IMG/VR virus record: IMGVR_UViG_3300037045_000353
Span: 1 to 34,519 of that record
Direction: 5' to 3' (one strand)
Length of the DNA: 34,519 bases
From: a virus
Taxonomy: Duplodnaviria; Caudoviricetes
The notes under the pieces were generated by a model. The model ran no database searches. It was not told the origin of the DNA and was given only the letters and a program-made list of their open reading frames with translations. Position numbers and translations under genes: made by a program. Below, one piece after another: positions 15,320 to 34,519 of the stretch; the first letter of the stretch is position 1; the number at the start of each line of letters is the position of its first letter.

Positions 15320-15388
15320 GATAGTGCCCTCCTAATGAGTAGAATCCTGCGTTTTGTTTAATGTCCACTACGAGTAAACGGACATGAT

Positions 15389-17963: not shown

Positions 17964-17975
17964 CCGCTCACCTCC

Positions 17976-19262
17976 TTAAACGACATAGCGTTTATAAAAA
18001 TAGTTGTTGGCATAACGATCTTCGTCCATTGCGTGGTTCCAGTCGTCGATTGGTTTGCCGTTGCCGTCACGACAGTACATCCCGAGCTCTTTGAGAAAGT
18101 CGTAATGGCCGTAGCGGTCGGTCTCGACGAGGATGAACTGCCCGCTCGTGATGGCGTTCTGCACCCGCTCGATTCCGACCTCGATTCCCTTCGAGCTCCC
18201 TTTGATGTCCCTGGCGTTGTTGTCGGCACCGTCCGTCTGAACGCCGAGCAGATGCAATTCCTCTCGGAGCGACTTACAAGCGGGATCCACGAAGACGCGG
18301 GAATAGTTCAAATTGAATTGGAGGCGTGCCCAATCCATGAATTCCTTGATTTCTTTCGCATATTGACTCATCGCTTTCACTTGGCCCGTCTCCGAACCGC
18401 TGTGATAGTAGTTGGCCACACGGTTGCGCCGGTACCACAAGCGGCCGTCCTCGCGTCTGTGCTTGGTGACGATGTGACAACTGCAGCTGGTCGCATCGCT
18501 CTGACCACCATCGGCGACGAAATACATCTCCATCGGCTCGCCTTCGAGCTGCGGCTTGATGTTCTTTTGCATGTCGAACATGGAATAGATGACCCCTTCC
18601 GGCATGACCCGCTTCCCTTCCCAATCTCGCGCGAACAGATACGGATTCTTCGATAGTGTCTCGTGAATCTCCGCTTTCCGTTCGTCGGTGAGTATCGGGT
18701 TGTCGTGAATCGTCCAATGCGTCCACCGAGTGTTTTGAACCTCGAAAACGTCTGTAATGACCGGATGATTCGGCGCCGGTGGGTTAAGGTCTGCCAGATG
18801 ATAGCGATTCTTTGCCGCGAACGTCCGACGGAAACACTCTTGGATCATGTCGATGTGCAGCAAGTTGATTTCAAGGAAGACGACCGAACCGAGCGACATG
18901 CCGGTGATTGCCTTGTGGCTGTCACTCTTGCCGCCGCCTTTGTAATAGATCTTTCGAATGCCTTTCGATGTCTGCAGTTCCAGATGGTCGCCGTGCTCGT
19001 CGTGTTTCGTTCGAGCCAGATTCCCGAAGATGTGCTGCAAGCCATAGCCGTCACCATCGATGAACAAGCGATAGGCCTGCTCTTGGTTATAACCGACGAT
19101 CAGATGGTTCTCGTCCTCGGTCTCGATGTAATAACGGGCCATCCGGAAGATACCGCCCGTCGTCTTGCCCGAACGTGGCGTCCCTTCATTGACCTCTAGC
19201 GTGACGTCGAATGGCAGTTTGATGAGCCGCTTCTGCTTTTCACCGAATGCTATATTACTCAT
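17976..19262 (-). CDS. terL: Terminase large subunit (PBSX family)
   Basis: Walker A GTPRSGKT; nuclease ADGGQSDAT, VFVDPA and NHAMDEDRY. Confidence 0.95.
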   Translation of the reverse strand: MSNIAFGEKQKRLIKLPFDVTLEVNEGTPRSGKTTGGIFRMARYYIETEDENHLIVGYNQEQAYRLFIDGDGYGLQHIFGNLARTKHDEHGDHLELQTSKGIRKIYYKGGGKSDSHKAITGMSLGSVVFLEINLLHIDMIQECFRRTFAAKNRYHLADLNPPAPNHPVITDVFEVQNTRWTHWTIHDNPILTDERKAEIHETLSKNPYLFARDWEGKRVMPEGVIYSMFDMQKNIKPQLEGEPMEMYFVADGGQSDATSCSCHIVTKHRREDGRLWYRRNRVANYYHSGSETGQVKAMSQYAKEIKEFMDWARLQFNLNYSRVFVDPACKSLREELHLLGVQTDGADNNARDIKGSSKGIEVGIERVQNAITSGQFILVETDRYGHYDFLKELGMYCRDGNGKPIDDWNHAMDEDRYANNYFYKRYVV

Positions 19263-19713
19263 CTTTCATCACATCCAATATAGCTTCAAGCAGCGTCGTG
19301 TCTTTCTTGTCCGACTTGAGCAGTTCGAGCTTGGCCTTGAGATACTCGGTCTGTAGCTTCGCCTGTTCGTAGACGTTCTCGACTGCATTGAGCTCCTTGA
19401 TGGCATTTAAAAACGCCGAGCTGTTCGCCTGGCGCACTCCATTCTCATGTATGCTCGTCTCTGCCGCTTCGACGAGGAAGAGCAACTTCTCGATTGCCTT
19501 CTCACGTGTCCAGATTGCGTCCTTCTTCGCTTCGGCCATCAATTCGTCGTACCTCGCCCTAACCTTGGCATTCTTTAACAGCTTCGATGCCTTATTGTCG
19601 ACCGTCTCGTCTTTCATCCTGCTATTCGGATATGCATCTCGATAGGCGGAACGCTGACTCATGCCGGCTATAACATTCAGCACGAACTTCTCTTGTTTCG
19701 CCGTTAGAGCCAC
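19255..19713 (-). CDS. terS: Terminase small subunit
   Basis: LTAKQEKFV...SQRSAYRDAY...ASKLLKNAKVRARYDEL HTH; AAAGGAGGTG RBS before GTG 19713. Confidence 0.92.
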   Translation of the reverse strand: MALTAKQEKFVLNVIAGMSQRSAYRDAYPNSRMKDETVDNKASKLLKNAKVRARYDELMAEAKKDAIWTREKAIEKLLFLVEAAETSIHENGVRQANSSAFLNAIKELNAVENVYEQAKLQTEYLKAKLELLKSDKKDTTLLEAILDVMKDE

Positions 19714-19797
19714 CGTCTCACCTCCTTTTATGTCTACAAGGCCGCGCGCGTTAGGGGTGTCTAGGGAGTGTCGACACGCGAGCGGTTTTCTAGGCAC

Positions 19798-19819
19798 AAA
19801 AAAGACGCCCGCAGGCGTC
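19798..19819 (-). terminator. Intrinsic terminator-like hairpin
   Basis: GACGCCTGCGGGCGTC-TTTTTT on the minus strand. Confidence 0.75.
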
Positions 19820-20130: not shown

Positions 20131-20637
20131 TTAAACCATTCTTGCTTCGTGCACAGCTGTCATAAAGTCTTTCATTACTTTCTCGAAGAATAATGAGTCT
20201 AAGAGCACGTTTGATTTAATAATGTTTGAATCATCTTGAATCTGAGGTTTCAAAATGAAAGCGTCACCTAATGCATTTAAAGACAATAAGTATTTTTCGG
20301 TATTGTCTGTACCACCATCAGGTTGAACTCTAAATTCGAACATCACTTCAGAACCTTGGCGAACATTCTCGACAAGAATGTAGTTGTTAGCTTTTGAATA
20401 ACGACTATAATCGTTTCTTACTATAAAACTTTTACCATTAGACTCAGTCTCAACGTAAAGCTCGTAATTTGTCAGTTCTAAAAATTCTTCAAAACCTTTT
20501 CGCAAAGATGTCATAAGTTTTCCTGAATTTCGAACAAATTCATAAGCTTTGGCATTCAGACTGATTAAATTCAAGACTTCTTTAAGCTGCTCAGTCTTAG
20601 GTAATAATGTTTCACTTTTTTCGGTTGCCTCACTCAT
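20131..20637 (-). CDS. Hypothetical AT-rich moron protein (168 aa)
   Basis: GGAGGTG RBS before ATG 20637; own terminator; no recognised motif. Confidence 0.8.
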   Translation of the reverse strand: MSEATEKSETLLPKTEQLKEVLNLISLNAKAYEFVRNSGKLMTSLRKGFEEFLELTNYELYVETESNGKSFIVRNDYSRYSKANNYILVENVRQGSEVMFEFRVQPDGGTDNTEKYLLSLNALGDAFILKPQIQDDSNIIKSNVLLDSLFFEKVMKDFMTAVHEARMV

Positions 20638-20755
20638 TTTAATCACCTCCTTCCATAAATGAATTTTCTCATGGAAAAAGAGGAATTACTAGTATTTGGT
20701 AATTGTAATTTTAATTTGTAATGTATTTGGAAATGTTGGAGACATCCACTCTTTC

Positions 20756-20821
20756 ATCTTACTTGCGATTTCAAACTAATGGTTACCTGTATCTCTCCTA
20801 AATCTCTCCTGTTTTTTACCT
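20756..20821 (-). promoter_or_regulatory. Probable late promoter with four 11-bp-phased activator repeats
   Basis: Minus strand AGGTAAAAAAC-AGGAGAGATTT-AGGAGAGATAC-AGGTAACCATT, followed by -10-like TAAGAT (20756-20761), pointing toward terS. Confidence 0.65.
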
Positions 20822-20874
20822 CTACAAATGCTTATAATTTAATCAATACTAAACGACAAAGGAGAAAACAGTAA

Positions 20875-21615
20875 ATGCGACCAAAAGATAATAATCTTGA
20901 AATTGTTCTCAAATCGACAAAGTCTTTGGATTTCAAAAGAATTGTAGCTGACATTATCGATAAGATTACCCCTATCCCAGCACGTTCTATCTTAGAGAAC
21001 TGTGAAGTATTTACTAGTAACCTTAGAACAAATTATATAGATGTATTGATGGCGAAAATTTATGCAGACTCTAATCGCCATGAAGAAGATTTAGAAGCTC
21101 TATTTTCACAGTTAAAAAATAATGATGCACTTCAGATTTACATAGGAAGATGTATAGAAATTTCCAAACAGACTAATAGTAATATTGCAACCATCCTATT
21201 AGGTATCTATTCAGGACAAGTTTTTGTAAATCCTGAACTCTTAAAAAGTCATATTTCAGTGGTTATGCTAGAAATTCTATCGAGTTTGAACGATACCGAT
21301 ATAAAGCACTTTTGCACGTTATACGATTATTTAATTGATCATCAAGAATCCGGTGTCTCTTCACATCAAGCCTATTACGGATTAAATGAAATGAAACACG
21401 AATCATTTCTCAAAGAACAAATACAAGTCGACCCTAATCTAGTTTCATATTTTACAAGTGTTAATAAACTTTCAAACTTAGGATTAATATCGAAAGGTGC
21501 TGGGATGTGGGGTGGCATTGATAATTTTGCAGTCACTATTAACGCATACAGCCATGCACTTAAAGATTTAATTTTGGAATATGAAGAGCTTTCGAAATAT
21601 CAAACTTCACCATAA
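20875..21615 (+). CDS. Abi-alpha (DUF4393)-like protein, moron
   Basis: AAAGGAG RBS and upstream TATAAT. Motifs MLEILSSLNDTDIKHF, VNKLSNLGLI and VTINAYSHALKDLI resemble the Abi-alpha C-terminal winged helix. Opposite strand to the lytic genes and AT-rich. Confidence 0.55.
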   Translation: MRPKDNNLEIVLKSTKSLDFKRIVADIIDKITPIPARSILENCEVFTSNLRTNYIDVLMAKIYADSNRHEEDLEALFSQLKNNDALQIYIGRCIEISKQTNSNIATILLGIYSGQVFVNPELLKSHISVVMLEILSSLNDTDIKHFCTLYDYLIDHQESGVSSHQAYYGLNEMKHESFLKEQIQVDPNLVSYFTSVNKLSNLGLISKGAGMWGGIDNFAVTINAYSHALKDLILEYEELSKYQTSP

Positions 21616-22074
21616 TCTGAAAACATCAGCTATCTGCCCACGAAGTCCGTCAAGCGCATTGTAGTAACGGTCATTGCCCCACCCCAGCTCATCACGCACA
21701 TGGATGTCCTTGCGCCGGCGTCTTTTGTATTTATAATCCCAAACGGTCAACTCGTCCTCGGCTAAGTAAGTACGTATCGTGTTCATCTTTTCGAATTCAT
21801 TTTTAATGACAATCAATTCGCGCTCAGCTTCAACAATCATCTGGTCATAGTGCTGCTGTTCTTTTAAACGATGCGGATGACTCATCGACTCACTGGCAGC
21901 ATAGTTGACAGTCAGAGAGGACCGAAGACTTATCTCCGGTCCACCATTGATGATTTCCTCTGCCTGTTGGATTAGCAAAGGGAGTCTGAAATATCGATGA
22001 AGCAATTCATCTACTTGTCTGCGTAATCGCTTGTCGTCTTTGACACGCGTTTCAATCCATTTGAGTTGGTTCAA
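21607..22074 (-). CDS. arpU: ArpU/RinA-like late transcriptional activator
   Basis: End of the early operon; VDELLHRY, SSLTVNY, YLAEDELTVWDYKY...DIHVRDELGWGNDRYYN sigma-region-4-like HTH. Confidence 0.8.
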   Translation of the reverse strand: MNQLKWIETRVKDDKRLRRQVDELLHRYFRLPLLIQQAEEIINGGPEISLRSSLTVNYAASESMSHPHRLKEQQHYDQMIVEAERELIVIKNEFEKMNTIRTYLAEDELTVWDYKYKRRRRKDIHVRDELGWGNDRYYNALDGLRGQIADVFRLW

Positions 22075-22231
22075 TCTGCTTCACCTCACTGAATATTTGT
22101 TTTTGATGATTGAGAGATTGTTTTTCAAAGAGTATTCCAGCCAAATAAATCGCCCGCTCACGTTGCATGTCTTGGGCGTACCGTCTCCGGCGATACTGTT
22201 CAAGGCTAATGACTTTCGGTTGCTCCCTCAT
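22052..22231 (-). CDS. Hypothetical 59-aa protein (not in ORF track)
   Basis: MREQPKVISLEQYRRRR...; AAGGTG RBS; overlaps both neighbours. Confidence 0.6.
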   Translation of the reverse strand: MREQPKVISLEQYRRRRYAQDMQRERAIYLAGILFEKQSLNHQKQIFSEVKQIEPTQMD

Positions 22232-22358
22232 ACTTAATCACCTTCAGCAATTCGCCGCCTTTCTGTTGAATGAACTGCTCACATTCTGCTTTCGAACGTT
22301 TCCATGTCACTATTTTTTCGTGACGCCCATCTTTGACGTAATAGATCCTGACGAACAT
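22206..22358 (-). CDS. Hypothetical 50-aa protein (not in ORF track)
   Basis: MFVRIYYVKDGRHEKIVTWKRSKAECEQFIQQKGGELLKVIKYEGATESH; GAGGAG RBS. Confidence 0.6.
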   Translation of the reverse strand: MFVRIYYVKDGRHEKIVTWKRSKAECEQFIQQKGGELLKVIKYEGATESH

Positions 22359-22363
22359 CAATC

Positions 22364-22582
22364 TTACTCCTCATAGTGTTTGACGAGAGAACGCCCGCAT
22401 AACGATTCAATCTGTTCAATGGTCATCATCTTGACGAGTCGATCTAGTGGTTGAAAGTATGTTGCGCGAGGAATGATTTCGTAGTAGCCGTTCTTAAAAT
22501 CGATACCGCTTGCGACCGGGTGGCCCTTATACATGAAGGTGACCCGATTTTTGAGTCTCTTATTAGGGATGATTTGAATCAT
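22364..22582 (-). CDS. Hypothetical early protein
   Basis: GGAGGAG RBS; ATGA coupling with the upstream gene. Confidence 0.75.
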   Translation of the reverse strand: MIQIIPNKRLKNRVTFMYKGHPVASGIDFKNGYYEIIPRATYFQPLDRLVKMMTIEQIESLCGRSLVKHYEE

Positions 22583-22809
22583 TCTGTTCTCTCCTCCAAC
22601 ACCTGTAGCATCACGCGAGTCGTTGCAAGCTCGGCCATAATGGCACGTGAGGGTGAGCTTTCTGCGTTCCTCACAATCATTTCGATATGATTGATTGCGT
22701 TTGTCAGAACGTCACACTCCCTTTCTTTCAGCTGCAGTAGCTGCAATGCATCAAGTAACATTTCGTTCTCTGTTTCCAAATGCCTAACCCTCTCCTGAAT
22801 GTCCATCAT
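22579..22809 (-). CDS. Hypothetical coiled-coil early protein
   Basis: GGAGG RBS fits ATG 22809; operon packing. Confidence 0.7.
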   Translation of the reverse strand: MMDIQERVRHLETENEMLLDALQLLQLKERECDVLTNAINHIEMIVRNAESSPSRAIMAELATTRVMLQVLEERTE

Positions 22810-22901
22810 TTCATCCTCCATTTTTCATGAATGTTCCAAACAATGTATCCGACACAGATGGCAATTCCAGCTATCACGAATTCCGTCTCAGAATCAATCA
22901 T
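22806..22901 (-). CDS. 31-aa single-TM peptide
   Basis: MIDSETEFVIAGIAICVGYIVWNIHEKWRMK; ATGA overlaps on both sides. Confidence 0.55.
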   Translation of the reverse strand: MIDSETEFVIAGIAICVGYIVWNIHEKWRMK

Positions 22902-23008
22902 CGCTCAAGCTCTTGAACGTGTTCATACGACCAAATGAGGATAATGATCAATGAAACGGCAGGGACTGCCACAATAGCAGCCGCTGCCATAATCCCCAAC
23001 ATTGTCAT
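22898..23008 (-). CDS. 36-aa single-TM peptide
   Basis: MTMLGIMAAAAIVAVPAVSLIIILIWSYEHVQELER; ATGA overlaps on both sides. Confidence 0.55.
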   Translation of the reverse strand: MTMLGIMAAAAIVAVPAVSLIIILIWSYEHVQELER

Positions 23009-23145
23009 GCGACTCGATCTTCTTCTAATTTCTTCAGTAGTTCGTCAAATCGACGCTCTGCCTCTGCAATCTTCTCTGGGTCCGTTTCTATCACCGGTTT
23101 ATAAGCCCAGCAGTTGCCTTCTTCCGTATATTTAAAAGGGTCCAT
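23005..23145 (-). CDS. Hypothetical 46-aa protein
   Basis: AAGGAGTG RBS before ATG 23145 (MDPFKY...). Confidence 0.65.
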   Translation of the reverse strand: MDPFKYTEEGNCWAYKPVIETDPEKIAEAERRFDELLKKLEEDRVA

Positions 23146-23158
23146 CTCGTTCACTCCT

Positions 23159-24154
23159 TCATTCAAATAAGAGACTGGATAGGTCTTCGTTTTCAGACTT
23201 GGCAAGCTTCAGTCGCGCACTTTCTTCAGGCATCGCAATCGAAAATGACATCTTCGTAATCCTGGACTGGATTCGTCCATCGTCCATTTGGAACTTCTGG
23301 CCAAGTTCCTCGACTGGGATGTTTGACGTGAAGATGGTAGGTAGTTCTTTCGTCATGCGATGATTTAGCAAACGGTATAGTATCTGATTGACAAAAGTGC
23401 TGTCGCTCTCGACACCCAAGTCATCCAAGACGAGCACGTCGGCATTTTTCACAGCGTCTGTGACATCCTTTGTTTTCAATTTGCTGTCATTGTCGAATGT
23501 CTCCTTGATCTGTTCAATCAAATCAACTAGTACCGCATACCTGACGTCAATTTGTTCGCCGCGCTCCGCATGGATTTGAATCAATGCATTTGCAATCGAT
23601 GCACCAAGTCGCGTTTTCCCGCTGCCTTTAGTCCGGCTCCAGAAGTACAGCCCCTTTCCGCTGAAATCAACCTTGATTCGGTCGAAGTTACGAACAAAGT
23701 TGGCAGCTGCTTGCTTGGCTCTAGAAGCAATGGCTTTCGCCTCTTCATGTTCATAGATGTTCACATCGAAGCTTCTCAGGGTCAGCCCACGAAATTCCTC
23801 CGGGATCCCTGCAATCCGTGCCCGATTCTTGAGACGCAATTGAGGCAAACACTTACATGCTTTTTGATATTCATATGGTGGATAGATAGGCAGACGCTTC
23901 CCCTGCACCCGTCGCTCTTCACGGTCTTTCAATTGGCGTTCATGTTCCTCATGGTCGTAAACCAAGACATGCCCTGTCCCATCGCACGTCCCGAATGGGC
24001 ACTGGTCAGAAATCGAGTTCTGAATCGTCAAAGTCTTTCCATTCTCCTTTAGCACGGAGCTCGGCTTCTCGCTCTGCGAGATAGTCGCGTGGAGTTTCGC
24101 TTTGGCTGCCACTTTCATGAGTAGTTCGTCCATTTCGTCGGCCACTCGTTGCAT
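23159..24154 (-). CDS. DnaC/IstB-like AAA+ helicase loader
   Basis: CPFGTCDGTG/CKC Zn site, Walker A TKGSGKT, Walker B VLVLDDLG, PTIFTSN and RIQSRI. Confidence 0.93.
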   Translation of the reverse strand: MQRVADEMDELLMKVAAKAKLHATISQSEKPSSVLKENGKTLTIQNSISDQCPFGTCDGTGHVLVYDHEEHERQLKDREERRVQGKRLPIYPPYEYQKACKCLPQLRLKNRARIAGIPEEFRGLTLRSFDVNIYEHEEAKAIASRAKQAAANFVRNFDRIKVDFSGKGLYFWSRTKGSGKTRLGASIANALIQIHAERGEQIDVRYAVLVDLIEQIKETFDNDSKLKTKDVTDAVKNADVLVLDDLGVESDSTFVNQILYRLLNHRMTKELPTIFTSNIPVEELGQKFQMDDGRIQSRITKMSFSIAMPEESARLKLAKSENEDLSSLLFE

Positions 24155-24839
24155 GATTGTTTGCCCCTTTCTTTCGCAGCGCTTCGAAGTCTGACAAAGT
24201 TTTGATGCCTTGATGATCTCTCAAGTTGGCCAAGATGCCGGATGCATAGTCCCACTTCTTACCACGCTCGATTGCAATATCGATAGCTCGAACAATTAGG
24301 TCAGGTTCCATACCTTGCTCGAGGAACTTATCAATGGCTCTTGACACAAGTGATGGGATATTCCCGTAATTATTTTGATAATGCTCGACAATGATTTTCT
24401 GACTACTACCGGTAGTAGTGTTAGTTAAATCATTCTTAGTTAAGTTATTCTTAGTTAAATCATTATTAGTAGTGGCAGGTTTACCGCTGCGGGTAATCCG
24501 TTGCGGTAAACCCGTTGCGGTAAATCCGCAATGGTTAGGAAGCTCGTAGACTGTTACATTGTGGTGCTTAATTCTCCCTCTCTCATCCCGCACTTCTTCT
24601 TGAGTTAAATAACCATGTTGTTCAAGTTCTTTTAGTGCTCCACGCAGTGAGTCTCTTCCATCAGTAAAATGCTTAACCAATTCTGACTTGAATAATATCC
24701 AGTCGTCTGGAAGGCTCAAAATGTAAGCTAGTACACCTTTTGCTTTCGCGGACAACTCGGGGTTCTGCAGGAACCCCTTGTCCATCATCACGAAATTACT
24801 TTCTTTTCTGACACGATTAATTCGCCCATGTCCCATCAT
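24006..24839 (-). CDS. Replication initiator (N-terminal HTH, DnaD-like C-domain)
   Basis: NFVMMDKGFLQNPELSAKAKGVLAYILSLPDDW...LKELEQHGY; LIVRAIDIA...WDYASGILANL; internal iterons. Confidence 0.9.
   Translation of the reverse strand: MMGHGRINRVRKESNFVMMDKGFLQNPELSAKAKGVLAYILSLPDDWILFKSELVKHFTDGRDSLRGALKELEQHGYLTQEEVRDERGRIKHHNVTVYELPNHCGFTATGLPQRITRSGKPATTNNDLTKNNLTKNDLTNTTTGSSQKIIVEHYQNNYGNIPSLVSRAIDKFLEQGMEPDLIVRAIDIAIERGKKWDYASGILANLRDHQGIKTLSDFEALRKKGANNHATSGRRNGRTTHESGSQSETPRDYLAEREAELRAKGEWKDFDDSELDF
24421..24530. repeat. Probable replication origin: 14-bp iterons plus AT-rich 15-bp repeats
   Basis: CCGCTGCGGGTAAT/CCGTTGCGGTAAAC/CCGTTGCGGTAAAT at 24484, 24498 and 24512; TTAGTTAAATCATTC-type x3 at 24421-24465. 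Confidence 0.85.
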
Positions 24840-24846
24840 CTACACC

Positions 24847-25746
24847 TCACAAGAACGGATCTTCGTCAGCTTTTGATTTTGATTCTTCTGGCTGTACGTC
24901 GACGATTGTAACTTCAGTTCCGTTATCGACAAATGAAGTATCAATGATGGCCTGACTAGTTACGGCTGACTGACGTACTCGAGATACGCTGTTATCCGCA
25001 TTAATGAGCTCACCTAGATGCTGTACTTCACCATTCTCTTTTTCAATCGATAGAGGGGCCGTTTTTAACAGACGAATAATGACGGTCTTTTTGGCCATCT
25101 CGACAAAATGGTCTTTCCACGGTCCCACGACGGCACCGTTGTACTTGGACTTTGTGAACCGGTCCCGATGGTTCTCGATCTGTTCTCGAGTCATGACGAC
25201 GAAGTCGTTCCCGCCATCTTTGAGGTGATAGACGGCGTACACATGAGTGACCTTATCCGGGTCTGATTCTCCACAAGGCACGTGATGCAAGTCTTTGTTG
25301 AGCCCATATGCATATTCGAACTCATCGCCTTCATACACTTCATGTGCATACAGTTGCTTCAACTCGCCAGAGCGACGCGCTAAGTCAATCGCTCCTTTGA
25401 AGCCCAGTTGAAACTGCGCCTCCATTTGCTTCGTCTTTCCGTTATAGAACGGCAAGATGTAGGCGTGTCCAATGAGGTTCGGTTCGACTCCTAGCGCCGC
25501 ACAGTTGACGATTGCGCCGACTAGGGTCATCTCATCACATTCGAATAGCTTTGGGTTCCGAGTTGCGGCGCTGATTGTCAGACGTGCCAGTCGCTCGGGT
25601 GTTACATGCTTCGGAACAAGCGACTGGATCGCCTTATAGTTGTCGTTGATGAGCGATTTGAGTCTTCGTTCGTTATCCCCTGCCTGCGCCGGCGCCTGTG
25701 CGCTTCGATTCGCCAACTGATTCTTTACGTCTGCAGTTTTTGCCAT
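24847..25746 (-). CDS. recT: RecT-family single-strand annealing protein
   Basis: LVPKHVTPERLAR, LGVEPNLIGHAYILPF, QFQLGFKGAIDLARRSG and PWKDHFVEMAKKTVI motifs. Confidence 0.95.
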   Translation of the reverse strand: MAKTADVKNQLANRSAQAPAQAGDNERRLKSLINDNYKAIQSLVPKHVTPERLARLTISAATRNPKLFECDEMTLVGAIVNCAALGVEPNLIGHAYILPFYNGKTKQMEAQFQLGFKGAIDLARRSGELKQLYAHEVYEGDEFEYAYGLNKDLHHVPCGESDPDKVTHVYAVYHLKDGGNDFVVMTREQIENHRDRFTKSKYNGAVVGPWKDHFVEMAKKTVIIRLLKTAPLSIEKENGEVQHLGELINADNSVSRVRQSAVTSQAIIDTSFVDNGTEVTIVDVQPEESKSKADEDPFL

Positions 25747-25748
25747 GA

Positions 25749-26702
25749 TTATTTAGCCTCCTTGATTGCAAATCTTCTTGTTGATTTTCCGATTTTGATG
25801 CATTGCGTGTAGATATCCGGATGCTCGAGTTTAAGTTTTTTCGAGTCGATGGTTTCGCGTGCTTTGACCGTCTTCCATTCGACAAAATGATTCTGAGCGA
25901 TACCGACTTCCGCTTCACCAATCAACGCCTTGAGTTTATTTTCCGCTTCCGTCTTTTGGACTTTCAGTTCTTCCAATCGTTCGCTTGTTTCTTGATACTG
26001 TTTAATCAAATCTTCTGCTTCATCTGGAAGCTCTGTCTCCGAGCCTTGTTCTGCTGTCGGGAACATCCGGCCAAGTAAATCACTCGATGCTTTCGAACCA
26101 TCGTAGGCCGGTGGCACTCTCTTGAGCACATGGTTGTTCCAGAAGTCAGACGCAATCTCGATGATGAACTGAATCATTTCTTCGTCTCGCTCGATCCGTT
26201 TGTAGATAAACTTTTGACCCCCGACAAGAACCGCAATCCATGCTGCTTCATATCCAGTGACCGCGAGATAATGCATAACTTGAATGATGTATTCTGCGGG
26301 TATCTCGTCCGCCTCCCATTCCTTCAAACGATAAGCAGAAGACGTTTTGCACTCGAGTATCTCTTTCTTACCGACCAAGACCCGGTCGAGGTTCGCAATC
26401 ATATAGGGATGATTTGGGTGTGCAAGCATTCTGTTGTCACGACGTACCTTATGACCCGTCTGGGATTGAAACTCTTTTGCAACAACGTCTTCGAGAACAT
26501 TGCCCCAATAAGCGGCTTCCCCTGCGATGTCTTCGACCACAGTTTCTCCGACCTTGTCTAAATAGACGCTCATCGCTGACTTGTATTTATTTAATCCTGC
26601 GATGGCAGAGATGTCTGAGCCGCCGATGCCATTACGACGCATCTCTAACCATTCATCACGACTCATCCCGCTCACGTTCGCCAGTGCAATCACGTTATTC
26701 AT
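25749..26702 (-). CDS. YqaJ-like (lambda-exonuclease family) recombination nuclease
   Basis: WLEMRRNGIGGSD, WGNVLEDVVA, ANLDR, LECKT and YIIQVMHYLAVTG motifs. Confidence 0.95.
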   Translation of the reverse strand: MNNVIALANVSGMSRDEWLEMRRNGIGGSDISAIAGLNKYKSAMSVYLDKVGETVVEDIAGEAAYWGNVLEDVVAKEFQSQTGHKVRRDNRMLAHPNHPYMIANLDRVLVGKKEILECKTSSAYRLKEWEADEIPAEYIIQVMHYLAVTGYEAAWIAVLVGGQKFIYKRIERDEEMIQFIIEIASDFWNNHVLKRVPPAYDGSKASSDLLGRMFPTAEQGSETELPDEAEDLIKQYQETSERLEELKVQKTEAENKLKALIGEAEVGIAQNHFVEWKTVKARETIDSKKLKLEHPDIYTQCIKIGKSTRRFAIKEAK

Positions 26703-27184
26703 TTGGTATCCTCCTCAATTTTCCGAATGTATTCTTGCTCTTCCTCCCACGACATGAACTCATCATGTTCACGGTCTGTTTGATAGACACGAATGCTATT
26801 TTTTCTCATGTCGATCCGCTCCTTTTCAGTTGGGTATTGGCGTGGAATTTCAAACAGTCTTCTTACTTTCAAGAGATACAGTCCTTCTGAGCGCTCTCGT
26901 GTGGTAGCCAAAGTGACAAGTGCATATTCGACGGCTGCCATCCAATCAACAAATTTGTATTTACGATTGAACTCCAAATGAGAGAGCGTCAATGCGTCCG
27001 TACAAAACGCCTCTTCATTTTTCAGTTCATCCATGCACGTGGTATACTTTCTCCATAAGATATAGTTACGTGCTTGATCTTCATCAAGGACAATTAGGCT
27101 GACCAAATAGTCCAGTCCTTCACGTCCTTGAGACAGACGTTCTTCTACGATGTCACGTAGAGCGTTCTCCAAAAGTTCATTCAC
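26699..27184 (-). CDS. Hypothetical early protein
   Basis: 161-aa ORF; AAGGGA RBS; ATGA coupling to the YqaJ-like gene. Confidence 0.75.
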   Translation of the reverse strand: MNELLENALRDIVEERLSQGREGLDYLVSLIVLDEDQARNYILWRKYTTCMDELKNEEAFCTDALTLSHLEFNRKYKFVDWMAAVEYALVTLATTRERSEGLYLLKVRRLFEIPRQYPTEKERIDMRKNSIRVYQTDREHDEFMSWEEEQEYIRKIEEDTK

Positions 27185-27204
27185 AGCTATATCCCTTCTT
27201 TCCG

Positions 27205-27232
27205 GACCGGCTCCGCATGGCCGGTCTTTTTT
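27205..27232 (+). terminator. Plus-strand terminator-like hairpin inside the minus-strand early operon
   Basis: GACCGGC-8 nt-GCCGGTC-TTTTTT. Confidence 0.55.
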
Positions 27233-27238
27233 GTTGTC

Positions 27239-27385
27239 TCATTTATTCAGCTTCTCTTCTTCTCGAGCTTTGGCCGCAGCTAGACGAGGAGCCGAGGTCT
27301 TTTTGAAAAACTGGACCATCGCCTTAGCCGTTTGTGGCGAAATACCAAAGTCGGCCGGGCTTTTTCTAAGTTGTTTCTCTTCCAT
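27239..27385 (-). CDS. 48-aa protein after cro (not in ORF track)
   Basis: MEEKQLRKSPADFGISPQTAKAMVQFFKKTSAPRLAAAKAREEEKLNK; AAAGGAG RBS. Confidence 0.7.
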   Translation of the reverse strand: MEEKQLRKSPADFGISPQTAKAMVQFFKKTSAPRLAAAKAREEEKLNK

Positions 27386-27402
27386 CTAGAATGCTCCTTT
27401 CT

Positions 27403-27653: not shown

Positions 27654-27761
27654 ACTATAACCTAACATAAAGTTAGAAGTCAATCACAAAACCTAACTTT
27701 TATTTAATGATAAAACACTTTACACTAACTTTCATTCATATTATCCTTAATTTAAAGTTAG
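27654..27761. promoter_or_regulatory. Lysis-lysogeny switch: divergent promoters and operators
   Basis: Minus TTGACT-18-TATAGT (27683-27654); plus TTTACA-17-TATCCT (27719-27747). Operators CTAACATAAAGTTAG (27662), CTAACTTTTATTTAA (27693), half-site at 27725 and TTAATTTAAAGTTAG (27747). Confidence 0.8.
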
Positions 27762-27772
27762 GAGGTGAAAAT

Positions 27773-28429
27773 TTGGATTTCGCAAAAAATATTAAGAAAT
27801 TACGTGAAGAGAAAAAGTGGAGTAAGAAAGAAATGGCCGATTTTTTACAGGTTTCTGATGTAACAATTCACTATTGGGAAACTGGAAGAAATGAACCTAG
27901 AATGGGACGAGTAGAAGAGATTGCAAAGAAATTTGATATTAAGGTTTCTGAATTAATCGGAAAAAATGCAATAGATGCTTCTCTTCCCCCCGACGCGATC
28001 ACTCGTATCACTGCATCGAATTATAAAATCCCAGTGTACGGCAGCATATCAGCCGGCATCCCGCTCGAGGCGATTGAGAACCTGACGGAGACGTCGGTTC
28101 CGGATCACGTCATTCTCAAGCATGGAGAAGACAAGCTGTTCGGTTTGCTCGTAAGAGGCGATTCGATGAACAAGATTGTCCATGATGGTCATTACGCTAT
28201 CCTGTGTAAAACGGATCGTGTGGAGTCTGGTGAAGTGGCTGCGGTGATCGTGAATGGATATGACGCTACGTTAAAGCGCGTCATTCTGTTAGATCGAGGA
28301 GTCTTGCTGGAGCCATCAAGCTACAACCCGGAGCACACGCCTAAGATGTATCTTGATGAAGAAGCGAAGGATATTAAAGTGATCGGCAAGTTGGTGGCCG
28401 TTATGTCGCCGCCAGATTTTAAGTTTTAA
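27773..28429 (+). CDS. cI: CI-like repressor with S24 autopeptidase domain
   Basis: XRE HTH; Ala-Gly site ISAG; catalytic GDSM and TLKR; AGGAGGTG RBS before TTG 27773. Confidence 0.95.
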   Translation: MDFAKNIKKLREEKKWSKKEMADFLQVSDVTIHYWETGRNEPRMGRVEEIAKKFDIKVSELIGKNAIDASLPPDAITRITASNYKIPVYGSISAGIPLEAIENLTETSVPDHVILKHGEDKLFGLLVRGDSMNKIVHDGHYAILCKTDRVESGEVAAVIVNGYDATLKRVILLDRGVLLEPSSYNPEHTPKMYLDEEAKDIKVIGKLVAVMSPPDFKF

Positions 28430-28576
28430 GCATTTTATAGGGAATTACGAATTGAAAAAGTATTATTTTTCTTAGCCTTAACGAATTACAAAAGTATTTT
28501 TTTGTCCTATATACGAGACTCAAATACTTTTTGATTTCGTTACGTTCTATCTCTCCAAAGCAAAAGTATTGCATTT

Positions 28577-28916: not shown

Positions 28917-29402
28917 ATGGGTAAGTTCGAAAAAATTAATCACCGCTTTGCTATCGTGGAGTATCCAATTACATTACAAGAGATGGACGAAATTAAGATG
29001 GAATTCCCTAAGTCAGAACGCGCTTTTTATGAAATCACTTTAAAGGCTCTGAAGAAATCTTTAAAACCTACTGACGAAATCTTTGGATTCGAAGGTGTAC
29101 AACCAACATTCACTCATATGGGTTTTCTCGTACTAATGCAAAATGAAGTCATTCTTTCTATCCATAAAGGTGGTTTAATGCCTAGTGCAACACTGGAACG
29201 AATACCGATGAATAAAATCACTGAAGTAGATTTCGACATTATCCCTGCCCCTATAAATCCGTTCAATGTAAACGAGGGAGAAATCCACATTACATACAAA
29301 AAAGGATTTGGATCGAAAAAATATACTATACGTAATGTACCAACAATCAACCTGGATAGTTTAGTCGCCCGGATACGTAACTTTGTTAAAACATCTGGCT
29401 GA
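28917..29402 (+). CDS. Bacterial PH-domain-like protein
   Basis: LKPTDEIF...GFLVLMQNEVILSIHKG...ERIPMNKITEVDF...GEIHITY pattern; AAAGGAGTG RBS. Confidence 0.65.
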   Translation: MGKFEKINHRFAIVEYPITLQEMDEIKMEFPKSERAFYEITLKALKKSLKPTDEIFGFEGVQPTFTHMGFLVLMQNEVILSIHKGGLMPSATLERIPMNKITEVDFDIIPAPINPFNVNEGEIHITYKKGFGSKKYTIRNVPTINLDSLVARIRNFVKTSG

Positions 29403-29425
29403 TATAAAACTGTTACGTTCACCAT

Positions 29426-29462
29426 AAAAAAGAAACTCATCAGATGCGATGAGTTTCTTTTT
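29426..29462. terminator. Bidirectional terminator
   Basis: AAAAAAGAAACTCATC-AGATGC-GATGAGTTTCTTTTT between convergent genes. Confidence 0.88.
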
Positions 29463-29467
29463 GTTGT

Positions 29468-29656
29468 TCAATTATCCACAGCCCTAGGCTTCTTATTGCC
29501 ACCATAAAAAATCATAGATGTGGCAATAATAATACAAATTAAACCACCAAGACTTGTAGTAATTATTGAAAGCTGTTCGTCAAAAAATGCTTTACTTATA
29601 CCAAGGAATATAAGAAATAACCACCCTATTAGGTTAATCTTATTTTTTTTAGACAC
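29468..29656 (-). CDS. 62-aa two-TM membrane protein
   Basis: AGGAGG RBS before GTG 29656; two hydrophobic segments. Confidence 0.7.
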   Translation of the reverse strand: MSKKNKINLIGWLFLIFLGISKAFFDEQLSIITTSLGGLICIIIATSMIFYGGNKKPRAVDN

Positions 29657-29666
29657 TTTATTTCCT

Positions 29667-29770
29667 CCTAACGAACTAATCAGCAAATGATATTGAATAG
29701 CTAAATTACCCTAAATGAAAACCACCCATTTGAACTACCACGTAAGTCAGATTTCATGTCCAACTTTTAT
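29667..29770. repeat. ~105-bp imperfect direct repeat, copy 1
   Basis: CCTAACGAACTA...ATTGAA...CTAAAT...AAAACCACCC.TTTGAACT...AGTC.GATTT...TCCAACTTT, shared with 30627-30732 (offset 960). Confidence 0.88.
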
Positions 29771-29809
29771 CGAACTTTCATTTTCTACTCTTTTGCAGAA
29801 TTGAAAGAA

Positions 29810-29859
29810 AAGCGACTCTCGAGGCGAACCTGAAGGTGGATCGAGTCGATGCGTCGCTT
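29810..29859 (-). terminator. GC-rich long hairpin downstream of the lipoprotein gene
   Basis: AAGCGAC...TCGA...ACC-TGAA-GGT...TCGA...GTCGCTT, with a U-rich tail on the minus strand. Confidence 0.55.
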
Positions 29860-29899
29860 CGTTTATAGATACTCAAGATAGTTGAATTATAAAAATTTA

Positions 29900-30424
29900 T
29901 TACTCAAAAGTTTCGATGGTCCTTAGAACTCTCGTATATATTTCCTTTACACTACTTTCATTCTCAACATCATTATAAAGACCAAATTCCCAATACGAAT
30001 ACTCATCTTGAGTCTTCTGCAAATATCCTGCAATGTATGAATCAGGAATATCAGGGGCATCTTCATATGCTAGGTCTTCTAATACAAAAGGTAAAAATCC
30101 TTTAGTAGTCCCAACAAAAAGTATTGGTATTGTCATTTCTTTATATACATTTATATATTTTTCTTCATCAGCTTGTGTTAAATGATCTTGCATGATAAAT
30201 ATTCCGTCAAACCTTTCGGAAGTTGATTTTGTATCTTCAAGATCTTCGAAAGATATGGCCGTAAATTTAACACTATCCTCTTTAATATCAGGGCTACTTC
30301 CTATAACACCTATATCTAAGTTTTTACCTTTGTAGACTGTAGGTTTTACTTCTGACGAATATTCGGATGTACATCCTAACAAAGTCATCACACTCAAAAG
30401 AAAAATTAAAAGTATTTTTTTCAT
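29900..30424 (-). CDS. Lipoprotein of unknown function
   Basis: MKKILLIFLLSVMTLLGC signal peptide II and lipobox; AAAGGAG RBS. Confidence 0.88.
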   Translation of the reverse strand: MKKILLIFLLSVMTLLGCTSEYSSEVKPTVYKGKNLDIGVIGSSPDIKEDSVKFTAISFEDLEDTKSTSERFDGIFIMQDHLTQADEEKYINVYKEMTIPILFVGTTKGFLPFVLEDLAYEDAPDIPDSYIAGYLQKTQDEYSYWEFGLYNDVENESSVKEIYTRVLRTIETFE

Positions 30425-30626
30425 GAAAAGACTCCTTTTCATCATCAACGTAAATCATACCTTATGTACATCAATCAACCTAATTACTACTAAAAATTCA
30501 ATTCACTCTTTGTGTTCCACTAATAAAAAGATAACTTATGTTTAAATATTATTGCGAATTACCATTATTTTCAACGTGCAAATTATTATTATCGGGCTTA
30601 TGTTATATCGTTGTAAATTACTCCAG

Positions 30627-30756
30627 CCTAACGAACTATTTTGCTATTGAAATTGAACAACTAAATAAGTGCAAACAAAAACCACCCGTTTTGAACTGCC
30701 CATAATAGTCGGATTTTTAGATCCAACTTTATGGTGTAGTTCAAAGGGTGGTTTTT
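30627..30756. repeat. Direct repeat copy 2, including an ~80-bp palindrome with IS3-like inverted ends (terminator of the nuclease operon)
   Basis: AAAACCACCC-GTTTTGAACTGCCCATAATAGTCGGAT...ATCCAACTTTATGGTGTAGTTCAAA-GGGTGGTTTT. Confidence 0.85.
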
Positions 30757-31472
30757 TAATTAGGAGATGGTTCAGGTTCATATTGAGATTGGTTAGGATG
30801 TTCTGTGATTAAATCGTTAATTGAAATATCTTGAGACATAGCAAATATTTTATCGTTAATTAATCCATTAAACGATTTCCCAGTTGCTAATTGATTAAAA
30901 TCATCGATATTAAAATCAATAATATAAGTTTTACTGTCTTTCAGTAGAAGCTTTTTTGTGAGACCAGTTCCGTTCACCCATCCTGATCCAGACAATCCAT
31001 GATAATTGAATAGTATCCCTAATGAGTTTTGTGTATATGACATTAAAGAAGCAAATTTCCCAACCCAAGTAGAAGCGATTCGCTTATCATAGTTTTTACA
31101 TTCAGCTATAAACTTCTCATGGCTAATCTCTAAGCCATGCTTTAAAAGTTGTCTGCCCTTAGGATTAAGTCTAACTAAAATATCTATCTCATTTGAAGAC
31201 GTTCTCAAATTTTGATATCCATCAAAAATGACAGATTTATCGATAACAAACTTCACTAAATTTTCAAGAGCCAGACCTTTCTCATTAGTCGAAGCCGAAG
31301 ATGCGTTTGTCGTTTTAAAACGCTCTAACAATTCACCGTATTCTTCCATTTCTTCCTTGCTATAACTAAGCATTGTGTCTAAAACATTTACTTCTTCGCC
31401 TAGTTGTTCTTCAAGAAAACGCTTTTGAACATCCAAGTATTCGCCTAAATTAAAACCTAAATCCTGCCTCAT
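30756..31472 (-). CDS. PD-(D/E)xK restriction-endonuclease-fold (Mrr-like) nuclease
   Basis: KGLALENLV (motif I), NEIDILV (motif II) and IAECKNY (ExK); ATGA-coupled to the upstream gene. Confidence 0.85.
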   Translation of the reverse strand: MRQDLGFNLGEYLDVQKRFLEEQLGEEVNVLDTMLSYSKEEMEEYGELLERFKTTNASSASTNEKGLALENLVKFVIDKSVIFDGYQNLRTSSNEIDILVRLNPKGRQLLKHGLEISHEKFIAECKNYDKRIASTWVGKFASLMSYTQNSLGILFNYHGLSGSGWVNGTGLTKKLLLKDSKTYIIDFNIDDFNQLATGKSFNGLINDKIFAMSQDISINDLITEHPNQSQYEPEPSPN

Positions 31473-31840
31473 ACTACAAGCACCCGATATATAACAATCA
31501 CGTTTTCATAGGAATCAAAATCATTATCACAATTGTCACAAGAGTGAGTAATGGGTAAGTCATTTAAACTACTGTAGATTTCACCTGTAGAGTATTTACA
31601 ACTAGGACAATAAACTTCGTATTGTCTCTCAATATACCCCAAATTTTCTATTTGAGTAAGAATTTCATATGTTTTTTTCATATCAATTCCAACAGTTCTA
31701 ATAAATGATCCGGGGTAAATATACTTTCTTCTTTCATTATTGTAGAAAGAAAGTTGTTTACTGAACTTCTGGACTTGGAGTGAATTCAGGTTCTTCATTA
31801 AGATAGTCTGTTCTATTTTCGATAAGGTATTTGGTAACAT
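31469..31840 (-). CDS. Winged-helix plus Zn-ribbon protein
   Basis: YIYPGSFIRTVGIDMKKTYEILTQIENLGYI, then CPSC...CDNC; GGAGAGG RBS 7 nt before ATG 31840. Confidence 0.8.
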   Translation of the reverse strand: MLPNTLSKIEQTILMKNLNSLQVQKFSKQLSFYNNERRKYIYPGSFIRTVGIDMKKTYEILTQIENLGYIERQYEVYCPSCKYSTGEIYSSLNDLPITHSCDNCDNDFDSYENVIVIYRVLVV

Positions 31841-32888
31841 CATTCATCCTCTCCATTTCAGCATTGCTACCATAATAGTTCAACAGTGTATAAACAGGTA
31901 AAAACGAGAATTTAACTTTAACTGCTCTTGCTTTTACTTCATGGGTCCAAGTAAGTGAAAGCCAAGGCATATTTGATGTACGCTCTGTTTCCATGATAAA
32001 GTTTTCAATTAATTCTTTAATCGACTTTGTTTCTTCATTTGATTCGAATAATTGTAAATTGTCTGCAATTAAGTATTGTAATTCCCCTAGTAAAGGTAAC
32101 ACAAACTCATCATTAATTCCTGTGTCTAGAATAGCTTTCGAACCAGTCGCTAAATCCATTGCTTGAGCAGAAACACGGATATCTCCGTTTCTTTGGAGTC
32201 GCGGTTTGATAAATTCAATTACAGGAGCCAGGTTTATCGGAGACAAATCCCATCCTAGATTTTGTCCTAACCATGACTCGACATAGGCTATTTGCTTTGT
32301 GTAAAAATTGTCATCGCCATTTCCGCTTCTAAAGTACCCTTTAGTTTTATCTAAACGAATTTCTACCGCATTTAATTCTTTATGGATTAATACAAGAATT
32401 GGATATTTAATTATTCTTTGATTATCGTCTCGAATTGGTAAATATCCTGTGATTTCATTAGAGAACTTCAAGCAGTCAATAGAATCGTTTAATTTTCTAT
32501 ATGTAGGACTTACTCCAACCATCTCATCTGAAAATCGAGTGCATTGATCATTTGCATTCGATTCGTAAGATATTATAGAACCTCTTTCTATTAAAGCTTC
32601 TATCACTGAAATGTCATAATTAACTAAATCAAACAATGTTGCATATTTATATGTATGAAAATACTCTAAATCTTCAACGTGTCTGATTAGTTCATCTGGA
32701 TTGGCATCAAAAACAGTATTTAATTGTGTGAGAAGTGATGCATCTGGCGCCACTACTACTGTATCTCCAAATAAACTACCTGATGAAGAAATAACACTAT
32801 TTTGTTCCAATCTTTTTTTTACTTTCTCTTGAGAATATTTAGGATATGTAGATGCCAAAGTGGTTTTTATAATGTCTTTATAAATCAT
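31758..32888 (-). CDS. Hypothetical 376-aa protein, first gene of the nuclease operon
   Basis: Long ORF in AT-rich DNA; GGGTG RBS; no recognised motif or TM segment. Confidence 0.85.
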   Translation of the reverse strand: MIYKDIIKTTLASTYPKYSQEKVKKRLEQNSVISSSGSLFGDTVVVAPDASLLTQLNTVFDANPDELIRHVEDLEYFHTYKYATLFDLVNYDISVIEALIERGSIISYESNANDQCTRFSDEMVGVSPTYRKLNDSIDCLKFSNEITGYLPIRDDNQRIIKYPILVLIHKELNAVEIRLDKTKGYFRSGNGDDNFYTKQIAYVESWLGQNLGWDLSPINLAPVIEFIKPRLQRNGDIRVSAQAMDLATGSKAILDTGINDEFVLPLLGELQYLIADNLQLFESNEETKSIKELIENFIMETERTSNMPWLSLTWTHEVKARAVKVKFSFLPVYTLLNYYGSNAEMERMNDVTKYLIENRTDYLNEEPEFTPSPEVQ

Positions 32889-32928
32889 TTCTTCACCCCA
32901 ATTTTAGTTTTCCGTAGATTGCTTATTC

Positions 32929-32957
32929 ATTATATATCACTCTTATATAAGATTGAA
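32929..32957 (-). promoter_or_regulatory. SigA-type promoter of the three-gene operon
   Basis: TTCAAT-17 bp-TATAAT on the minus strand. Confidence 0.6.
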
Positions 32958-33091: not shown

Positions 33092-34519
33092 ATGATGCAA
33101 AAACGAATAGGATTATACATTCGAGTTTCGACAGAAGAACAAGCCATGGAAGGTTACTCTATTTCAGGTCAACGGGAACGCTTAAAAGCATTCTGCGTCG
33201 CGCAGAGTTGGGAGACAATCAAATTTTATGTAGACGAAGGTATCTCTGGACGTTCCACAGAGCGCCCAGCACTAAAGAAAATGATGAAGGACATCGAGGA
33301 TGGTTTAATTGATGTGCTATTGGTTTATCGTCTCGATCGACTTACGCGAAGTGTACGTGATCTACACGACATCCTAGACTTTCTTGAGAAACACAATTGC
33401 CAATTCCGTTCAGCAACCGAAGTTTATGACACCTCGACTGCTATGGGCCGTATGTTTATCACCATTGTCGCAGCCATTGCGGAATGGGAATCGGCAAACT
33501 TAGGCGAACGTGTGCGACTTGGTCAGATTGAAAAAGCAAGACAAGGTGAATGGTCTGCTCCTGCTCCTTACGGCTTCAGAAAGAACGACCAAAAACGCCT
33601 GGAAGTGAATCCAGACGAGATTGAGGCCGTAAAACTTATGGTAAGCAAGGTTAAAGAGGGGTACAGCTTTCGACAACTATCTATGTATATGCAGAACACA
33701 TCCTATAAGCCACGTAGAGGCTATAAATGGCACATTGCATCTCTACTAGACCTGTTGCATAACCCAGCGCTTTATGGAGCAATGCAGTGGAATGATGAGG
33801 TCTATGAAGGCACACATGAAGGAATCATGAGCAAAGAAGAGTTCATGCAACTCCAGAACATCATTAAGTCACGACAGCTTCAGAAAAAACGAGAAACGAA
33901 TTACAACTTTATTTATCAAACGAAAATCGTCTGTCCATCGTGTGGCAATCGATTGAGCTCGGAATGCTCACGCTGGAAAAATAAGAACGGGATGGAGCGA
34001 TCAGCTAACCGATACCGCTGCCAGTCATGTGCTCTAGATGGACGAGAGCCGGTAAGCATTTCAGAATATAAACTTACACTGCAGCTCATTCAGCACATGA
34101 ATGCTCTAACATTTGATGAGAATGATCACGAGGAACTCGAGGCTGAAAAAGATAACCTGCAACTAATCGAAAATGAGATGCGCCGCATTGAACGAGAACG
34201 TGAAAAATATCAGCGCGCATGGGCCTCAGACTTAATCTCTGACACCGAGTTCAAAAATCGAATGGACGACACTAGAAAACGTTACTCGGACTTAGAACGG
34301 CAATTAAACGCCTCACAGGATGAAACGACTTTTGGTAATGTTAACCCAGAGTATATCAAACAACTTTCGAACGAATTTAACCAAAACTACGAGTACCTTA
34401 CAGATGAGGAGAAAAGAACTTTCGTTCAGCAGTTTATCGAATCAATTGAACTAGTCAAGGTCACTTCTACCTCAGCTGAAAAGAAAGTATACGATGTAAA
34501 AATGGTAAGATTTTTTTAG
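33092..34519 (+). CDS. int: Large serine recombinase (phage integrase)
   Basis: YIRVSTEEQ catalytic Ser, VYRLDRLTRS, recombinase domain (APYGF), Zn ribbon CPSCG...YRCQSC and coiled coil; AGGAGG RBS. Confidence 0.97.
   Translation: MMQKRIGLYIRVSTEEQAMEGYSISGQRERLKAFCVAQSWETIKFYVDEGISGRSTERPALKKMMKDIEDGLIDVLLVYRLDRLTRSVRDLHDILDFLEKHNCQFRSATEVYDTSTAMGRMFITIVAAIAEWESANLGERVRLGQIEKARQGEWSAPAPYGFRKNDQKRLEVNPDEIEAVKLMVSKVKEGYSFRQLSMYMQNTSYKPRRGYKWHIASLLDLLHNPALYGAMQWNDEVYEGTHEGIMSKEEFMQLQNIIKSRQLQKKRETNYNFIYQTKIVCPSCGNRLSSECSRWKNKNGMERSANRYRCQSCALDGREPVSISEYKLTLQLIQHMNALTFDENDHEELEAEKDNLQLIENEMRRIEREREKYQRAWASDLISDTEFKNRMDDTRKRYSDLERQLNASQDETTFGNVNPEYIKQLSNEFNQNYEYLTDEEKRTFVQQFIESIELVKVTSTSAEKKVYDVKMVRFF

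Follow-up and report, generated by a model that had tools for sequence, protein, structure and literature searches.

The provirus record IMGVR_UViG_3300037045_000353 (Duplodnaviria; Caudoviricetes), analysed here over its whole length of 34,519 bases (the window; estimated completeness 81%), carries beside its integrase a cassette of three minus-strand genes, here called A, B and C. They encode a protein with a predicted RdgC-type fold, a small predicted winged-helix protein and a probable PD-(D/E)xK nuclease, respectively. We found that this trio is a conserved, co-inherited, methylase-free and removable cassette, and its genomic context makes a defence role likely; that this defence is directed against phages or other mobile elements is a reading in which we place considerable trust. 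We hold the fuller proposal to be somewhat less likely than not, namely that the trio represents an undescribed Bacillota anti-phage family, in which a clamp of the RdgC/RexA/CENP-N fold would be wired to a canonical PD-(D/E)xK nuclease via a separate adaptor, whose start is hard-coded in the last helix of the clamp. New in this analysis are the RdgC fold predicted for A, the nesting of the ribosome-binding site and start of B in the last helix of A, as read from sequence and model, and a probable A-B fusion in one relative. The three genes are as follows:

31758-32888, minus strand: gene A, an open reading frame (ORF) of 376 aa
31469-31840, minus strand: gene B, an ORF of 123 aa from the second ATG (31840), or 124 aa if read from 31843
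30756-31472, minus strand: gene C, an ORF of 238 aa

An earlier reading of the bare sequence, referred to below as the original prediction, had described these three ORFs, their lengths and their overlaps correctly. A and B overlap by 83 nt with the start of B at 31840, which the homologues favour, and B and C overlap by 4 nt.

The evidence that the genes belong together comes from loci that were fetched separately with A and with C, the metagenome scan with C being restricted to the best 80 of 263. The resulting count of 132 loci omits the window's own locus and two loci from a sample of 401 Bacillota genomes, and because the search patterns were derived from close family members, distant forms with other partners are under-sampled in it. 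A, B and C stood together in the order A-B-C in 125 of the 132 loci and, when C was clustered at 90% identity, in 61 of the 65 clusters, which bears out the conservation that the original prediction had proposed to check. All 19 loci fetched with A also held B and C, although some were the same element twice, and among isolated phages A and C independently matched the same 14 records. In Staphylococcus aureus phages such as Henu2 (trio gp12-14) and Clostridium phages such as phiCT9441A (trio 75-77), the trio follows the lysin. Three of the seven exceptions (L060, L124, L125) were cut by a contig end. Pairwise identities of A, B and C were correlated (rho 0.55-0.72, against 0.21 for the best of 300 label shuffles), a correlation that shared ancestry alone would give. 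Of the 401 Bacillota genomes sampled, the centre genome alone had a real match to A, the only other match covering 55 positions and including a stop; thus, the cassette is rare in that sample.

Protein C offers the clearest biochemical signature. Its residues E70, D97, E124 and K126 were invariant in two alignments (35/35 and 53/53 homologues) and the motif EC[KR] was present in 83 of 84 C proteins, so the earlier assignment of C as a PD-(D/E)xK nuclease with intact E, D and ExK residues holds. C has a canonical PD-(D/E)xK core and, because the catalytic residues are conserved, is probably active; it is likely the effector of the trio. Mrr_cat (PF04471) was the only recurring Pfam family among the C homologues (29 of 35 at E <= 0.1, best 2.4e-6); the window's C fell under the Pfam cut-off (14.6 vs 21 bits), and two of its relatives scored above it. 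A PDB sequence search with the C profile found nothing. C homologues bear the database label 'acetylglutamate semialdehyde dehydrogenase', which was taken as a misannotation, because the nuclease motifs are present in the alignment. As the original prediction had stated, the window ORFs that were scanned include no DNA methyltransferase, the record being an 81% complete provirus. Methyltransferase genes occurred near the trio in only 3 of 65 representative loci (L004, L050, L118), each of a different kind, and therefore none is linked to it.

For protein A, no Pfam or NCBIfam family was found, the NCBIfam result being the same for 30 relatives, and a search of its profile against PDB sequences returned nothing. 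A belongs to PHROG 17559, a family of unknown function, and its profile finds 294 clusters at 50% identity. An AlphaFold2 model built from 149 sequences (predicted local distance difference test, pLDDT, 93.8) consists of an N-terminal helical domain (about residues 1-75) followed by a two-lobed alpha/beta fold of RdgC type (residues 78-364). RdgC (PDB 2owl, 2owy) was the top solved match of this model in three fold searches, with a Foldseek E of 1.9e-5, a template modelling (TM) score of 0.36 and about 10% identity, and with VIA Z 10.8-11.1 and a root-mean-square deviation (rmsd) of 4.5-4.6 over 209-214 aligned residues. Across RdgC as a whole Z was 10.4-11.1; the next matches were Iml3 and CENP-N/L at Z about 7-8.7, and the named top matches in a viral structure library include RdgC-like phage proteins. 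Among the conserved basic positions of A are K81, K141, K161, R178, K326 and R347. RdgC ring dimers bind DNA non-specifically, and lambda RexA, which has the same structural relatives (RdgC/Iml3/CENP-N), forms dimers and also binds DNA non-specifically, according to the accessible part of one report (PMC11077077). On the strength of the model, A is likely a dimeric DNA clamp and sensor, which by analogy with these proteins would dimerise and thread DNA. Two further alignments were observed in the same searches. CENP-N aligns to A residues 1-364 (Z 8.2), and residues 1-75 align to CARD/death folds (Z 5.4-5.9), a likeness that may reflect just a common helical arrangement. A complex prediction of A, B and C, with C as the partner, scored 0.63 vs 0.72 for a control in which A was replaced, and was not used as evidence either way.

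The original prediction had described B as a winged helix-turn-helix protein with a C4 zinc ribbon, and this stands for the window's B, which shows weak TrmB/MCM_C winged-helix matches in Pfam and the cysteines C78, C81, C101 and C104. The zinc ligands are nevertheless not universal: C78 and C101 were invariant and C81 and C104 conserved in at least 90% of 53 homologues, the strict CxxC..CxxC pattern was present in 60 of 74 distinct B proteins, and the B protein of S. aureus has no cysteines at these positions. The Atlas model of B matches part of DUF5939 proteins (TM 0.75-0.78). We therefore describe B as a predicted winged helix with a usually C4 zinc ribbon, which is likely an adaptor or DNA reader. 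Its start is encoded in an unusual place, next to the following signal:

31848-31854, minus strand: Shine-Dalgarno sequence of B, GGAGAGG, within the conserved MERM codons of A

Fifty-two loci were given to the analysis of this start, two of them without an aligned start, and the ribosome-site test used a loose pattern. In all 50 loci scored, B begins in the +1 frame within the last helix of A, 35-110 bases ahead of the A stop, and its ribosome site is encoded by the MERM codons of A. This nesting implies translational coupling of A and B, and it also means that the most conserved motif of A would be conserved partly for the sake of B. A programmed A-to-B frameshift is not needed, because B has retained a start and a ribosome site of its own in 50/50 loci. 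The conserved position of the start in the last helix of A suggests that a fixed ratio of A to B is under selection.

The seventh exception to the A-B-C order (L053) carries a 420-aa gene ahead of the C homologue in a P2-like proteobacterial prophage. This gene matches A over its residues 27-232 (32.6 bits vs 3.8 for shuffles) and shows a weak match to B at its end, where the zinc ligands are missing; for these reasons it is a probable A-B fusion, as far as sequence comparison can tell. The fusion and the nuclease together (L053:4649-6597) form a low-GC cargo (0.37 vs 0.61) between a repressor and the late gene D, and this locus is a two-gene form outside the Bacillota-type loci.

In the window, the cassette is part of a prophage with SPP1-type portal, terminase, tail, amidase and holin genes (library scans) as well as YqaJ/RecT recombination and DnaD/DnaC replication genes. 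Its closest named relatives are found in Robertmurraya, Metabacillus and Bhargavaea, and the host thus probably belongs to the Bacillales. The cassette lies in the interval between the repressor and the integrase, the latter being transcribed divergently from the minus-strand trio, which agrees with the earlier placement of the cassette beside the integrase:

33092-34519, plus strand: large serine integrase, the divergent neighbour of the cassette
27707-28429, plus strand: CI-like repressor (helix-turn-helix and S24 peptidase), the other border of the cargo interval

The unit is AT-rich, as had been claimed, with a GC content of 0.326, below that of the structural (0.518, positions 1-19800) and replication (0.463, positions 22100-27400) regions of the window, and the GC of the cassette was likewise below that of its flanks in 50 of 54 relatives with enough flank. 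Contigs from two public runs that match the prophage skip the whole cassette (30743->33101 in X1 and 30756->33090 in X5), and contig joints in related contigs fall at 30662-30756. Because these sister-prophage contigs lack exactly the cassette stretch, we regard the cassette as removable cargo. Other contigs, from two runs, keep the trio and skip 29368-30663; this variable skipping indicates that the interval between cI and the integrase has a modular make-up in this group of phages. An integrase-anchored search for sister prophages returned two distant matches only.

The position of the cassette varies among its relatives: it is found after the lysin, beside the integrase and among defence genes, and it also occurs outside prophages. 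A mobile-element marker (integrase, recombinase, lysin, transposase or similar) was present in the two nearest ORFs on either side in 26 of 65 representatives by hand count, and a PADLOC defence gene within two ORFs in 9 of 65. These nine neighbours were Wadjet II, Lamassu, type I restriction-modification, AbiD, Tmn, retron III-A with dGTPase, Drt8 with an Avs5-like SIR2 protein, PDC-M03 and SoFic. Dense defence clusters surround the trio in two loci, one with the retron III-A and dGTPase (L110) and one with the Drt8 and Avs5-like SIR2 protein (L112).

The trio itself had been put forward as matching no named system, and this was confirmed in PADLOC-DB 2.0 (2023), where A, B and C had no match at E <= 1, in NCBIfam, which gave nothing meaningful for the window's trio, and in the literature searched. 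PADLOC also misses GAPS4, and systems described after 2023 therefore lie outside that scan; some C homologues gave weak PDC-S02 and PD_DExK matches in it. No description of the trio was found in the literature searched, whose coverage excluded most subscription papers, and the supplements of bioRxiv preprints might list it as a candidate. Azaca is a three-gene system. It combines a nuclease with an accessory NTPase, a class that we took from a search listing, and it was rejected, the library scans showing no NTPase domain in A, B or C.

Nevertheless, the architecture is less unprecedented than the original prediction claimed, because two described systems are analogues: GAPS4, the closest in its working, which joins a predicted ring to a PD-(D/E)xK nuclease, and RexAB, which joins an RdgC-fold protein to an effector. 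GAPS4 is described in the accessible text of PMC13748975 as a PD-(D/E)xK system that responds to DNA damage by degrading host DNA, with a second protein for which a ring is predicted; the authors were unable to find out in vitro which DNA activates it. The system also appears in two preprints, of which parts were available (10.1101/2023.03.28.534373 and 10.1101/2025.09.07.674715). In both GAPS4 and the trio, which are carried on mobile elements, a PD-(D/E)xK nuclease lacking a methylase is paired with a protein of about 370 aa that is not catalytic; the GAPS4 partner is a predicted DNA-encircling dimer ring, and the clamp of A is likewise predicted. Language-model features in the Atlas connect A with clusters of GAPS4b_N (score 0.94; 56% of members), and a low-confidence model of GapS4b (4-sequence alignment, pLDDT 54.8), too poor to settle whether the folds are the same, shows a helical N-domain and two alpha/beta lobes like A, with RdgC not among the matches listed. 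However, GAPS4 has two genes, GAPS4a then GAPS4b (tandem or fused), with the nuclease first, an order seen in the reference locus L136, whereas the trio has three genes, the nuclease last and an extra winged-helix/zinc-ribbon protein. The GAPS4 nuclease motif is HGxD-SxK, while C has the canonical E..D..ExK; HGxD was present in the GapS4a control and in 0 of 84 C proteins. Membership in GAPS4 was therefore rejected by gene number, gene order, motif and the lack of detected sequence homology, although the trio probably resembles GAPS4 in how it works.

The second analogue, RexAB, is likewise carried by a prophage close to its immunity region and includes a DNA-binding protein of RdgC fold, the fold predicted for A. 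Systems of the RexAB type act through a membrane effector, according to the accessible part of PMC12894663; in RexAB this is RexB, whereas the trio would have a soluble nuclease and an adaptor (no membrane predictor was run on the trio). A also differs from RexA in its extra N-terminal helical domain. RexA was not among the fold matches listed for A, which still leaves room for a likeness between them. RdgC shares with the predicted model of A the two-lobed fold and is its best structural match, but A has about 75 additional N-terminal residues, shows no RdgC-family match in Pfam or NCBIfam at E <= 1, and always stands beside B and C in loci where the sequence allowed this to be seen. Mrr-like type IV enzymes probably share the catalytic core of C (Mrr_cat, PF04471), but C lacks Mrr_N and nearly always comes with A and B. 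Type II restriction-modification differs in its linked cognate methyltransferase, which the scan of the window's ORFs did not find.

From these comparisons we propose a clamp-gated route, which to us seems evenly balanced between right and wrong. A would act as an RdgC-like dimeric clamp that loads onto free or damaged DNA during infection, B would couple this clamp to C, and C, once switched on, would degrade DNA, so that the infection would likely be aborted. By analogy with RdgC, RexA and GAPS4, the last of which features DNA-damage activation, host DNA degradation and a 2:2 complex, we infer that A, B and C may form a complex, that DNA ends or damage may activate it and that the outcome may be cell suicide. 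The sensor/adaptor/effector reading of the original prediction thus gains a concrete basis from the predicted RdgC/RexA clamp fold of A and the probable A-B fusion in one relative, while its sensing step and its complex are still what we infer, and a nuclease kept in check until infection is a supposition.

Several observations weigh against this proposal. The match of A to RdgC is of moderate quality (10% identity at TM 0.36 and rmsd about 4.5), and a fold that is shared in a predicted model shows no function for A. C is found without A or B in two loci (L052 and L056), where it is apparently intact, the ORF before C in L056 having no family match, and a third locus (L114) lacks A and holds B with a broken C. 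In the fusion gene, the part assigned to B has weak support (10.2 bits vs 7.4 for the best of 200 shuffles, with an hhalign probability of 13%), and searches for further copies found no second fused A-B gene. Neither A nor C showed homology to GAPS4a or GAPS4b from the annotated E. coli GAPS4 locus and its relatives (hhalign below 1%, hmmsearch at or below the shuffled level), in a comparison whose GAPS4b template comprised 1-5 sequences only, so remote homology may escape it; the Pfam library scanned does not include PF26110 (GAPS4b_N). The count of defence neighbours has no control and comes from 71 of 208 neighbours, hand-picked, that were scanned against PADLOC. Finally, during its own excision and replication a carrier prophage would need some way to keep its clamp from being set off.

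An unlikely alternative, which nevertheless deserves attention, is modification-dependent restriction of the type IV kind, in which the winged helix of B would recognise a modified base and A would load the complex onto DNA or keep it there, while C would cleave modified DNA of an entering phage and the cell would survive. Recognition of methylated DNA by a winged helix is known from DpnI. The Mrr_cat likeness of C and the lack of a linked methylase fit this explanation. However, library scans of the trio and of 35 C homologues found neither Mrr_N nor any other domain known to read modifications, and PADLOC gave no type IV match for the window's proteins and only one weak mREase match for a solo C homologue. 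Moreover, the near-obligatory partner of predicted RdgC fold would be left unexplained.

Slightly less probable still is an exclusion mechanism resembling that of Rex, in which the trigger would be a phage protein or a protein-DNA complex rather than DNA damage and C would replace RexB. The cassette lies in the immunity-integration region, as does rexAB, and A falls in the RdgC/Iml3/CENP-N structural neighbourhood reported for RexA, whose DNA binding is reportedly not strictly required for exclusion (both from the accessible part of PMC11077077). Yet RexA is missing from the fold matches listed for A, and a PD-(D/E)xK effector suits a DNA-bound trigger more directly.

We consider it improbable that the trio is a toxin-antitoxin or addiction module that stabilises its element, with C as a toxin neutralised by A or B. 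Its tight translational coupling, with the nuclease encoded last, and its presence on many kinds of mobile element would suit such a module, but C stands alone and apparently intact in the two loci mentioned above, and sister prophages persist without the cassette. In addition, a large clamp-fold protein would be an unusual antitoxin. A phage DNA-processing unit without a defence role, taking part in the control of recombination, the processing of replication forks or the lysis-lysogeny switch, is the least probable explanation, since the cassette is low in GC, missing from sister prophages, variable in position and also found outside prophages, even though RdgC-like genes occur in phages, RdgC modulates RecA and RexA biases the lambda switch (accessible part of PMC11077077).

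If the proposed anti-phage family is real, it would be a strictly conserved Gram-positive defence system, carried also by temperate phages of S. aureus and clostridia and invisible to PADLOC 2.0. It would also provide a small, soluble, three-protein test case for what RdgC-fold proteins (RexA and probably GAPS4b) sense during infection. Together with RexA and GAPS4b, it would make the RdgC clamp a general, swappable DNA-end sensor of bacterial immunity.

The flanks of the cassette contain the following signals:

32929-32957, minus strand: possible SigA-type promoter TTCAAT-17-TATAAT, with a perfect -10 element and a -35 element matching at only 3 of 6 positions
32894-32899, minus strand: likely Shine-Dalgarno sequence of A, GGGGTG
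30677-30756, no strand assigned: long inverted repeat directly after C, -41.5 kcal/mol, z -8.7, ending in a U run

The claim that the unit has its own SigA-like promoter could not be upheld above chance, as TATAAT occurs 4 times in 4.1 kb vs 6.1 expected and the candidate was absent from the output of the promoter scan. Two RNA runs contained 0.06-0.07 of the sequence words. The claimed terminator fared better in part. The hairpin at 30677-30756 is strong and ends in a U run, but it was not picked up by the terminator scan, and its long stem together with a degenerate second copy near 29660-29745, 960 bases off, makes it look like a repeated junction element. It is possibly both a bidirectional terminator and the junction of the cassette; Rfam gave one chance match only, to a microRNA family. 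Hairpin-forming repeats lie at the cassette junctions (30677-30756, 29658-29745 and 29808-29860), with contig depth above that of the surrounding genes, and they may be recombination points for cargo exchange. Their TGAACT...AGTTCA core presumably resembles the ends of IS3-family elements.

Further observations concern the rest of the window. The optional stretch 29368-30663, with ORFs of 72 aa (membrane-like) and 182 aa (lipoprotein-like; 29900-30448, minus strand), is a separate cassette, because it is skipped in contigs that keep the trio, and perhaps serves superinfection exclusion. A strong bidirectional terminator-like hairpin (29418-29471, z -6.0) lies between the convergent 164-aa and 72-aa genes, and just after cI (28447-28542) a 23-nt direct pair and a 32-nt palindrome are possible operators or a terminator. 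A second low-GC patch (20131-22074, GC 0.32-0.37), between the terminase and replication genes, is possibly a second cargo slot; it holds a 171-aa ORF (20131-20646, minus strand) with a weak PADLOC SAVED_PDDEXK match (E 4.5e-4), a 246-aa protein without known family (20875-21615, plus strand) and a weakly matched ArpU-like regulator.

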